A DNA stretch of 64,000 nt, from assembly GCF_045037415.1 (NCBI RefSeq), contig NZ_CP173438.1, one strand, 5' to 3'. Position 1 is the first letter of the stretch. Each line of letters starts with the position of its first letter. The notes beneath the pieces were generated by a model. The model was not told where the DNA came from, did no database searches, and worked only from the letters and a program-made list of their open reading frames with translations. This DNA is from Escherichia coli (lineage in GTDB: Bacteria; Pseudomonadota; Gammaproteobacteria; Enterobacterales; Enterobacteriaceae). The translations under genes and the position numbers were made by a program. Shown here piece after piece: positions 12,904 to 63,389 of this stretch.

Positions 12904-12996
12904 GGTGAGGTGGCCGAGAGGCTGAAGGCGCTCCCCTGCTAAGGGAGTATGCGGTCAAAAGCTGCATCCGGGGTTCGAATCCCCGCCTCACCGCCA
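12904..12996 (+). tRNA. serV: tRNA-Ser (anticodon GCU)
   Basis: 93-nt cloverleaf with long variable arm, anticodon loop CTGCTAA, 3' CCA encoded. Confidence 0.93.
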
Positions 12997-12999
12997 TTT

Positions 13000-13076
13000 G
13001 CATCCGTAGCTCAGCTGGATAGAGTACTCGGCTACGAACCGAGCGGTCGGAGGTTCGAATCCTCCCGGATGCACCA
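13000..13076 (+). tRNA. argV: tRNA-Arg (anticodon ACG), copy 1
   Basis: 77-nt gcatccgtagctcagctggatagagtactcggctacgaaccgagcggtcggaggttcgaatcctcccggatgcacca; anticodon loop CTACGAA. Confidence 0.93.
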
Positions 13077-13140
13077 TCTCTTACTTGATATGGCTTTAGT
13101 GGCGGTATCAAAAAATCTGCAGTAAAGTAAGTTTCCCGAT

Positions 13141-13217
13141 GCATCCGTAGCTCAGCTGGATAGAGTACTCGGCTACGAACCGAGCGGTCGGAGGTTCGAA
13201 TCCTCCCGGATGCACCA
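13141..13217 (+). tRNA. argY: tRNA-Arg (anticodon ACG), copy 2
   Basis: Identical 77-nt repeat. Confidence 0.93.
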
Positions 13218-13279
13218 TCTCTTACTTGATATGGCTTTAGTGGCGGTATCAATATCAGCAGTAAAATAAATTTCCCGAT

Positions 13280-13356
13280 GCATCCGTAGCTCAGCTGGAT
13301 AGAGTACTCGGCTACGAACCGAGCGGTCGGAGGTTCGAATCCTCCCGGATGCACCA
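13280..13356 (+). tRNA. argZ: tRNA-Arg (anticodon ACG), copy 3
   Basis: Identical 77-nt repeat. Confidence 0.93.
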
Positions 13357-13419
13357 TCTCTTACTTGATATGGCTTTAGTAGCGATATCAATATCAGCAG
13401 TAAAATAAATTTTCCCGAT

Positions 13420-13496
13420 GCATCCGTAGCTCAGCTGGATAGAGTACTCGGCTACGAACCGAGCGGTCGGAGGTTCGAATCCTCCCGGATGCACCA
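13420..13496 (+). tRNA. argQ: tRNA-Arg (anticodon ACG), copy 4
   Basis: Identical 77-nt repeat. Confidence 0.93.
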
Positions 13497-16406: not shown

Positions 16407-16479
16407 AAAAGGCCACTCGTGAGTGGCCAAAATTTCATCTCTGAATTCAGGGATGATGATAACAAATGCGCGTCTTTCA
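16407..16479 (-). ncRNA. micA: MicA (SraD) small regulatory RNA
   Basis: Reverse complement reads GAAAGACGCGCATTTGTTATCATCATCCCTGAATTCAGAGATGAAATTTTGGCCACTCACGAGTGGCCTTTTT, matching the MicA sequence as I recall it, with intrinsic terminator. Confidence 0.85.
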
Positions 16480-25135: not shown

Positions 25136-25215
25136 AGGTATGATAAGACGCGCCAGCGTCGCATCAGGCATTGTGTACAGAGCGGCGGATGAGGCAAAAA
25201 CGCCTTATCCGCCCG
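25136..25215. repeat. REP element plus hairpin in the proX-ygaY spacer
   Basis: gataagacgcgccagcgtcgcatcaggc REP-type palindrome and ggcggatgagg...ccttatccgcc hairpin. Confidence 0.55.
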
Positions 25216-45044: not shown

Positions 45045-45407
45045 TGGTGGAGCTGGCGGGAGTTGAACCCGCGTCCGAAATTCCTACATCCTCGGTACTA
45101 CATGCTTAGTCAGTCTTTACATTCGCTTGCCAGCTGCGGACGGACACGCCACTAACAAACTAGCCTGATTAAGTTTTAACGCTTCAACCCCAGGCAGGGC
45201 TTCCACGCGATCTCTTTTGGGTTTGACCTCTCTTGATCCCCGTCCTAAGAGCGGAGGCTAGGGAGAGAGGGCTCTAAGCAGGTTATTAAGCTGCTAAAGC
45301 GTAGTTTTCGTCGTTTGCGACTATTTTTTGCGGCTTTTTACGAGGCCAACCGCCCCTCGGCATGCACCTTGGGTTTCGCAAATCCCGTCGAATCCAGAAT
45401 CAGCCCC
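45045..45407 (-). ncRNA. ssrA: tmRNA (SsrA), 363 nt
   Basis: Minus strand begins GGGGCTGATTCTGGATTCGACGGGATTTGCGAAACCC and ends ...GGTTCAACTCCCGCCAGCTCCACCA; internal tag-peptide ORF region present. Confidence 0.95.
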
Positions 45408-50938: not shown

Positions 50939-52201
50939 TTACTCCGCCACACTCTCGCGCAGCGGTTTTACAGGAAAAACTTTTACCTGCTTAATCATAT
51001 TGTCCTGTACGTCGAGAATATCGATATCGTACTCGCCTATACGCACGCGGGTGCCTGCTACCGGAATCTCCTCCAGCGCTTCCAGAATGACGCCGTTAAC
51101 AGTACGAGCATCATCTTCCGGTAGATGCCAGTTAAAGGCTTTGTTAATTTCTCGCACGTTGGCGGTGCCATCGATAATCACCGACCCGTCGTTTTGCGGC
51201 GTGACCTCTTCGGCAAGTGTTGGCGACATCGACGTGGTGAAATCGCCGACAATCTCTTCGAGAATATCTTCGACCGTCACCAGCCCCTGAATGTCTCCAT
51301 ACTCGTTGACGACCAGGCCGACTTTCTTTTTGTTGCGCTGAAACTTCACCAACTGTGTGCTGAGCGGCGTACCCTCCGGGACAAAATAGATCTCGTCCGC
51401 GGCGCGTAGCATGGTTTCTTTGGTGAACTCTTTTTTCTCCGACATGAGTCGCCAGGCTTCACGCACACGCAGCATACTGATGGCGTCGTCCAGCGAATCA
51501 CGGTAGAGCACGATGCGCCCGTGAGGTGAGTGGGAGAGTTGGCGCAGAATCGATTTCCAGTCATCGTTGATATCAATACCGATAATTTCACTGCGCGGCA
51601 CCATGATGTCATCGACGGTCATCTTTTCCAGATCGAGTACCGACAGCAGCATATCCTGATTGCGACGGGAAATTTGTGACCGCGATTCGTGCACAATGGT
51701 GCGTAATTCTTCTTTGCTTAAAGAGCCACTAACCACGATATCGGTTTTGATGCCCATCATGCGCATTAACATGCGGGTAATAGCATTCAGCAACCAGACC
51801 AGCGGCATCATCAAAATTTGCAGCGGAGCCAGCAGAAAACTACTCGGATAAGCGACTTTTTCCGGGTACAGCGCGGCAATGGTTTTTGGCAATACCTCAG
51901 CAAAAACCAGCACGACAAAAGTCAGCACACCAGTCGCAATTGCCACGCCCGCATCGCCGTACAAACGCATTCCAACAATAGTGCCGAGCGCGGAGGCAAG
52001 AATATTGACCAGGTTATTGCCGATTAACACCAGGCTTATCAGGCGGTCTGGCTTACGCAGCAATTTTTCGACGCGTTTGGCCGAGCGATTACCCTGTTTC
52101 GCCATATGCCGCAGACGATAGCGGTTGAGGGTCATCATTCCGGTTTCGGACCCGGAAAAATAGGCTGAAATGACCACCATGATGATCAGAATAATGATCA
52201 A
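50939..52201 (-). CDS. yfjD: CorC/TlyC-family inner membrane protein (DUF21, CBS pair, CorC_HlyC)
   Basis: ORF-track start is TTG at 52201; the frame stays open upstream (LEHISTTT) so the true start is unresolved. Confidence 0.85.
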   Translation of the reverse strand: MIIILIIMVVISAYFSGSETGMMTLNRYRLRHMAKQGNRSAKRVEKLLRKPDRLISLVLIGNNLVNILASALGTIVGMRLYGDAGVAIATGVLTFVVLVFAEVLPKTIAALYPEKVAYPSSFLLAPLQILMMPLVWLLNAITRMLMRMMGIKTDIVVSGSLSKEELRTIVHESRSQISRRNQDMLLSVLDLEKMTVDDIMVPRSEIIGIDINDDWKSILRQLSHSPHGRIVLYRDSLDDAISMLRVREAWRLMSEKKEFTKETMLRAADEIYFVPEGTPLSTQLVKFQRNKKKVGLVVNEYGDIQGLVTVEDILEEIVGDFTTSMSPTLAEEVTPQNDGSVIIDGTANVREINKAFNWHLPEDDARTVNGVILEALEEIPVAGTRVRIGEYDIDILDVQDNMIKQVKVFPVKPLRESVAE

Positions 52202-52245
52202 CGTAGTAGTAGAAATGTGTTCCAGGGGAAACTCCTTTTCTGGGT

Positions 52246-53037
52246 TTAGCTGATTAACTGCTGAAAAATTCGGCTGCCGAAGTAGGCCAGTGTCAGAATG
52301 ACTGCACCCGCAACGTTAAACCAGACGACGCGGCGTCCACGCCATCCTTCATGATAATGTCCCCACAGCAGCACAATATAGACAAACCACGCCACGATAG
52401 AGAGCACGGCCTTGTCGATATTTTCCATGCTAAATAAGTTGTGCATGTAGAACAGGCCAGTGCAAAGAGTGAGCGTTAGCAGCACCACGCCAATCTGCGT
52501 GATATGGAACATTTTACGCTCGATACTCATCAATGGCGGCATTTCCTGGTTAAACGCCAGCTTCTTGTTCTTCAGTTGGTAATCAATCCACGCCAGTTGC
52601 AGCGCGTACAGGGCAGCGATAATTAGCGTGGCATAGGAAAAAAGCGATAAGCCAATGTGCACCAGCATCCCCGGCGTTGCTTCCAGATGGGTGATGTATT
52701 CATTGGGCATAAAGGTCGCCAGCGCTAGGTTGATAAGCGCAAAGGCATAGACAATGGGTAGCAACAACCAGCCACGATTGCGAGAAGCCACAATGGTCAT
52801 TACCGTACAGATCATCAAACTGACCAATGAACCAACGTTCAGCAGGCTGAGGTTTTGTCCGCTATCACCGTCGGGCAGGATGCGGGCTTCCAGAGCGATT
52901 GCGTGGCAGACCAGCGCGATGACCGCAGAAATAATAGCCATGCGCCGCCAGCCGCCGTTTTTTTGCAGCAGACCGGGAACAATCAGCGCAAGACTGACGG
53001 AGTAGGCGACAAGCGCGAGCAGAGCAAAAACGGGCAT
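52246..53037 (-). CDS. ypjD: Cytochrome c assembly-like inner membrane protein
   Basis: 263 aa from MPVFALLALVAY; polytopic. Confidence 0.85.
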   Translation of the reverse strand: MPVFALLALVAYSVSLALIVPGLLQKNGGWRRMAIISAVIALVCHAIALEARILPDGDSGQNLSLLNVGSLVSLMICTVMTIVASRNRGWLLLPIVYAFALINLALATFMPNEYITHLEATPGMLVHIGLSLFSYATLIIAALYALQLAWIDYQLKNKKLAFNQEMPPLMSIERKMFHITQIGVVLLTLTLCTGLFYMHNLFSMENIDKAVLSIVAWFVYIVLLWGHYHEGWRGRRVVWFNVAGAVILTLAYFGSRIFQQLIS

Positions 53038-53203
53038 AGTAATGTCGACAGTTTGAGCAATAAGAAAGAGAAGCAGTATAGCGTCAGGTGAACGCTGCTC
53101 CAACCGTTGCATAACAACAAAGACGCCTTCATGTTATACTGCGGCAAAATACTGATGATGTGTCGCGATTGCGGCCAACCGTTTCCACCCCAGGCGAGAG
53201 ACA

Positions 53204-63149: not shown

Positions 63150-63195
63150 TTTTTGTTATCAATAAAAAAGGCCCCCCGATTTGGGAGGCCTTATT
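63150..63195 (-). terminator. pheA attenuator terminator
   Basis: Minus-strand hairpin ggcctcccaaatcggggggcc followed by TTTTTTATT between pheL and pheA. Confidence 0.8.
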
Positions 63196-63238
63196 GTTCG
63201 TCTTCGCATTCTGTTTCACACGACGAAACGCCTCCCAT

Positions 63239-63286
63239 TCAGGGGAAGGTAAAAAAGAATGCGAAGAAAAACGGTGTGTGTTTCAT
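63239..63286 (-). CDS. pheL: pheA leader peptide (15 aa, Phe-rich)
   Basis: Manual translation [15 protein letters not shown] with seven Phe codons. Confidence 0.88.
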   Translation of the reverse strand: [15 protein letters not shown]

Positions 63287-63389
63287 GTTTGTTTCCTTAA
63301 GTGACTTTAGTACAGTACCCGTACTGTTTTCACGCTGTCAACAAAAAACGCGCCCGAAGGCGCGTTGGCGATACACTCAATATAAAGGA

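Follow-up and report, generated by a model that had tools for sequence, protein, structure and literature searches.

A CTG start codon for yfjD, a putative CNNM/CorB-type transporter gene of Escherichia coli

Introduction

At which codon does translation of yfjD begin? The question arises in a stretch of 64,000 nucleotides of the Escherichia coli contig NZ_CP173438.1 (here "the window", to whose numbering all positions refer unless stated otherwise), in which a mechanical open reading frame (ORF) of 420 amino acids on the minus strand, 50939..52201, begins at a TTG codon. This placement, given in an initial annotation of the stretch, is confirmed by the ORF listing, and two further observations of that annotation are borne out: the frame stays open 5' of the TTG without an ATG, reading ...NQLNPEKEFPLEHISTTTLIIILIIMVVIS (also given as …EFPLEHISTTTL and …NQLNPEKEFPLEHISTTTL) back to a TAA at 52318-52316, and the TTG codon opens a hydrophobic stretch (LIIILIIMVVISAYF). 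Between that TAA and the TTG at 52201, no ATG, GTG, or TTG was found in frame.

The initial annotation treated the start as unresolved and offered two options, a non-ATG codon farther upstream and the TTG itself. The first of these stands, the codon being a CTG eight codons 5' of the TTG, while the second falls, since the TTG has no Shine-Dalgarno (SD) sequence and is not conserved as an initiator. That the start should be unresolved is contradicted by the RefSeq annotation, by the mutagenesis reported in EcoGene 3.0, and by a comparison of 79 species. A clear signal at one unique codon, on which the initial annotation had made its doubt depend, is found at the CTG, by sequence and reported mutagenesis evidence only.

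We therefore assign the start of yfjD, with high confidence, to the CTG at 52225-52223 on the minus strand, which yields a 428-amino-acid protein beginning fMet-EHISTTTLIIIL. Annotations already carry this start, and its confirmation by mutagenesis has been reported; the question is settled, the biology is ordinary and known, and current knowledge of the locus is unchanged by the results presented here.

The yfjD coding sequence and its annotated start

Read from the CTG, the yfjD coding sequence occupies 50939..52225 on the minus strand and comprises 428 codons and a TAA stop. The RefSeq coding sequence from strain SK1144 (1,287 nt, 428 aa, WP_010723175.1, "HlyC/CorC family transporter") maps to this interval and begins exactly at the CTG. 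The window is part of the E. coli chromosome; the 1.5 kb of DNA around the start are 100% identical to SK1144 and ~96% identical to K-12, and of 5,426 complete E. coli genomes 5,425 have this segment. Codon 1 (52223..52225, minus), taken to be decoded as fMet on the strength of annotation, sequence, conservation, and reported mutagenesis, is the "L" of the string FPLEH in the open frame; it was not singled out in the initial annotation, whose range ended at 52260, ~12 nt inside the 3' end of ypjD. No table-11 initiator precedes it after the in-frame stop at 52318, and the next ones are an ATT at codon 4 and the TTG at codon 9.

The same CTG-start coding sequence is annotated by RefSeq in a K-12 MG1655 assembly and in three variant E. 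coli strains, although calls across strains come from one propagating pipeline and do not count as independent evidence. In the K-12 reference NC_000913.3, the CTG-start yfjD is b4461, at 2748774..2750060. This is the same gene, with a protein (YP_026171.3 / WP_010723175.1) identical to that of the window strain; from the SD motif to codon 16 the two DNA sequences are identical, and two substitutions separate them in the 3' end of ypjD.

EcoGene 3.0 (PMC3531124) predicted the yfjD CTG start from conservation and inspection of the ribosome-binding site, and start-codon mutagenesis with protein fusions, cited there as unpublished (D. Dague, K.E. Rudd), is reported to have confirmed it. Among the CTG starts of E. 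coli K-12, the same source counts yfjD as the second; the first was hda, the earliest chromosomal CUG start shown in E. coli and likewise one read by the initiator tRNA. The two genes differ in that hda encodes an unrelated protein and lies in a different genomic context. In the literature and data sets checked, we found neither initiation-site ribosome profiling of yfjD nor an N-terminal peptide; yfjD is not mentioned in the text of the Ribo-RET preprint and is absent from the TRAINSPOTTER N-terminomics data for E. coli. Its absence from the latter is unsurprising, since trypsin would release a first peptide of 35 residues that spans a transmembrane helix.

Protein family

By its domain content, YfjD is a predicted CNNM/CorB-type (HlyC/CorC family) inner-membrane transporter. 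Pfam matches comprise CNNM (DUF21, PF01595) at residues 11-184 (E = 8e-54), CBS (PF00571) at 278-326, a single repeat passing the E-value limit, and CorC_HlyC (PF03471) at 344-418. The match to the NCBIfam equivalog NF008604 extends from the first residue of the CTG-start protein to residue 427 and scores 866.7 bits against a cut-off of 475. The short polar N-terminus that precedes the first helix is also present in distant orthologues. The domain set, judged by sequence, is shared with CNNM/CorB Mg2+ transporters such as Salmonella CorB, the archaeal MtCNNM, and MpfA of S. aureus, and E. coli yfjD (P37908) adjoins Salmonella CorB in a published CNNM phylogeny (bioRxiv 10.1101/2021.02.11.430706). 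The database name "Mg2+/Co2+ transporter CorB" given to YfjD is an annotation only.

Shine-Dalgarno pairing and conservation at codon 1

An SD sequence, AAGGAG, can be read at 52232..52237 (minus), separated from the CTG by a 6-nt spacer (TTTCCC). Predicted pairing of the 20 nt upstream with the anti-SD sequence of 16S rRNA amounts to -8.2 kcal/mol for the CTG versus +2.4 kcal/mol for the TTG. The 30S subunit would be placed by the AAGGAG lying 6 nt upstream of the CTG. Decoding of CUG by the initiator tRNA through a first-position mismatch is established for bacterial initiation, and the near-cognate CUG of yfjD would be read in this manner. RNA structure does not appear to present the CUG, as the fold of a 120-nt segment was not significant (z = -1.23; 23 of 200 shuffles fold as well).

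On first principles a CTG is an unlikely start, given its weakness in reporter assays, where CUG reaches 1-2% of the AUG level and GUG and UUG reach 10-100% (bioRxiv 10.1101/063800). Because CUG is so poor an initiator, the translation rate of yfjD is probably low, an effect that the strong SD sequence would partly offset.

Conservation was assessed by a scan of species-representative genomes, in which the 80 best-matching loci included 79 that were usable, all of them from Enterobacteriaceae and with 87-100% protein identity; Yersinia, Serratia, and other Enterobacterales families lie outside the 80 best loci. A library of representatives at 50% identity merges nearer relatives into the E. 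coli cluster. Codon 1 is an initiator in 79/79 of the listed species (CTG in 36, TTG in 30, and GTG in 13), with no leucine codon of the CTC or CTA type among them, whereas codon 9 drifts among the same species (CTG 50, CTC 11, TTG 7, CTA 6, CTT 4, TTA 1). Residues 2-8 (EHISTTT) are conserved among the 79 while their third codon positions vary synonymously, and no such protein-level conservation is seen 5' of codon 1. Mean SD pairing over the 79 listed species is -6.95 kcal/mol at codon 1 versus +2.46 kcal/mol at codon 9, and 75 of them have an AGGA core 6-8 nt ahead of codon 1. At the level of sequence, then, the comparison singles out one predicted start codon, codon 1. The locus combines the marks of a near-cognate start: an initiator without a better start upstream, an SD sequence at functional spacing, and an initiator that is kept while Leu9 drifts.

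Within E. coli, the 91-nt region around the start is identical in 4,695 of 5,425 genomes. Strain 28RC1 (NZ_CP015020.1; yfjD protein WP_077626229.1) carries one extra C directly before the CTG, so that the run of four C's between SD sequence and CTG, aligned to 52226-52229, becomes five and the spacer grows from 6 to 7 nt. Upstream of the SD sequence, 9 nt are inserted in strain ChlosBP and 1 nt is deleted in E. albertii. Given these indels, the reading frame is not kept upstream of the CTG. Two other cattle-associated matches, strain 135 and OkiPb01687, show the same 1-nt longer match as 28RC1.

Alternative starts

The older annotation, like the mechanical output of ORF finders, has translation begin at the TTG (52199..52201, minus) and end in a 420-aa protein, a reading to which we attach very little credence. 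The TTG is the first ATG, GTG, or TTG of the ORF and the hydrophobic helix begins there, but neither it nor the ATG at codon 16 (Met16; 52178..52180, minus, inside the first transmembrane helix) is preceded by an SD sequence. Moreover, the aligned codon is a leucine codon that cannot initiate in 22 of the 79 listed species, the eight residues preceding it show protein-level conservation across Enterobacteriaceae, and mutation of the codon 9 TTG is reported to be without effect on expression (EcoGene 3.0, PMC3531124). The TTG would then be an ordinary, non-initiating leucine codon (Leu9) where transmembrane helix 1 begins.

A published distance also speaks for the TTG. In the table of a 2016 study of the MazF regulon (PMC5001579), yfjD appears in a list of 5'-untranslated region cleavages with an ACA cleaved "17 nt" from the start, and this distance fits only the ACA at 52220-52218 (minus, codons 2-3 of yfjD) counted from the old TTG start; the ~45 nt preceding the CTG (back to 52270) contain no ACA. 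The study seems to have used the TTG start. With translation beginning at the CTG, the MazF site lies within the coding sequence, and cleavage would truncate the ORF rather than shorten a leader.

Initiation at both the CTG and a downstream in-frame codon, either TTG9 or ATG16, would give two N-terminal forms of YfjD. CUG is weak, so some ribosomes might start downstream, and E. coli genes with alternative in-frame starts are known; even so, this appears highly improbable when neither downstream codon has an SD sequence, TTG9 is not conserved as an initiator, and its reported mutation left expression unaffected. A start at Met16 would, in addition, delete half of transmembrane helix 1 and fall inside the Pfam CNNM domain, whose match begins at residue 11.

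An N-terminus still farther upstream, whether from an unconventional codon in the 3' end of ypjD or by frameshift or readthrough from ypjD, has a next to negligible probability: although the frame in this window is open for 31 codons 5' of the CTG, to the TAA at 52316..52318 (minus) inside ypjD that bounds any upstream start, the stretch holds no table-11 initiator, ypjD is read in a different frame, an in-frame stop lies 2-7 codons 5' of codon 1, with no NTG in between, in 59 of the 79 listed species, and indels of 1 nt and 9 nt occur in the interval from ypjD to the CTG within Escherichia, so that an upstream start or a fusion to ypjD appears effectively refuted by the comparative data.

The ATT at codon 4 was also considered as a start and rejected. 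Its SD sequence would be ~15 nt away, and E2 and H3 are each conserved in 78 of the 79 listed species.

Absence of ATG and Shine-Dalgarno strength

With the CTG taken as the start, the initiators of its orthologues show a pattern of their own. Although ~82% of annotated bacterial genes use ATG (bioRxiv 10.1101/063800), none of the 79 listed species has an ATG at codon 1. Parsimony on a neighbour-joining tree of these species requires at least 8 substitutions at the first base of codon 1, all of them among C, T, and G, with none to A. Eleven distant orthologues from metagenomes, with 42-50% identity, have called starts of TTG (5), GTG (3), and ATG (3); the called start lies at the homologous position, in the motif [start]-[D/E/N]-x-[I/V/A]-[P/S/T], and for most of these eleven the gene immediately 5' of the CNNM transporter gene is ypjD-like (Cytochrom_C_asm).

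The strength of the SD sequence varies with the codon. Among the 79 listed species, GGAG is found in 32 of 36 CTG lineages versus 1 of 43 TTG or GTG lineages, and mean pairing is -8.13 kcal/mol in CTG lineages (AAGGAG), compared with -6.10 for GTG and -5.91 for TTG (mostly AAGGAA). The pattern fits the general trend of SD compensation described by Belinky, Rogozin, and Koonin (PMC5622118).

The pairing of the weakest codon with the strongest SD sequence looks like the tuning of a set expression level, and the initiation rate of yfjD may be held low. We raise only tentatively, and with some doubt, the idea that yfjD/corB orthologues are selected against an AUG start, which would keep initiation weak or coupled to ypjD; what weakens this reading is that the species are not phylogenetically independent, that the distant sample is small and its starts are gene-caller starts, and that SD compensation is already known as a general trend. 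The absence of ATG, the non-ATG starts of distant orthologues, and the stronger SD sequences of CTG lineages may, taken together, be mildly new.

The junction with ypjD

On the minus strand, ypjD is followed by yfjD; grpE lies downstream and ffh upstream of ypjD, both on the opposite strand. The TAA stop codon of ypjD (52246..52248, minus; supported by sequence, ORF list, and RefSeq) ends 20 nt before the CTG. Between ypjD and yfjD we found no promoter-like site, and terminator-like matches in the region are near chance (6 found versus 3.4 expected). Because no promoter-like site separates the genes and the gap is only 20 nt, we infer that ypjD and yfjD are co-transcribed and possibly translationally coupled. 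Under such coupling, ribosomes finishing ypjD may re-initiate at yfjD across the 20-nt gap.

A weak terminator-like hairpin is present at 52269-52281 (minus), in the 3' end of ypjD, with TTCGGCAGCCGAA followed by TTTTTCAG and a stem of only 5 pairs. The T-run of this hairpin arises by two substitutions relative to K-12, AATTGTCCAG becoming AATTTTTCAG. At the 5' end of ypjD, the longest ORF starts from an ATG at 53112 (minus strand, 288 aa), compared with 263 aa from the ATG at 53037 (MPVFALL...) in RefSeq, so that the operon presents another choice between candidate starts.

A scan of the whole window against Rfam at the gathering threshold gave no match in the yfjD region. The matches obtained elsewhere are, in listed order, a cluster of five tRNAs at 12904-13493 (+), the MicA sRNA at 16407-16478 (-), naRNA4 at 25137-25214 (-), tmRNA (ssrA) at 45045-45407 (-), and the Phe leader at 63162-63287 (-), none of them near yfjD.

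Mis-called starts in public collections

As one of very few chromosomal CUG-start genes of E. coli, yfjD is a natural test case for the tolerance of near-cognate initiation. It is also a gene that ORF finders limited to ATG, GTG, and TTG mis-start: automatic calls of E. coli yfjD often fall at Met16 or TTG9 because the callers do not allow CTG. Public collections accordingly contain 420-aa TTG9 forms as well as shorter Met16 forms that lack part of the first transmembrane helix.

The database proteins P0002, P0006, P0121, and P0123 begin at Met16 (MVVISAYF...). One of these, P0002 (640 aa), was considered as a possible ypjD-yfjD fusion and rejected as an artefact, since it too starts at Met16 and is long because a C-terminal frameshift carries it on antisense to grpE. 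Another, P0006, carries an insertion of ~20 residues (EIHDEYDENEEENIKAVGKHE) after EEIVG.
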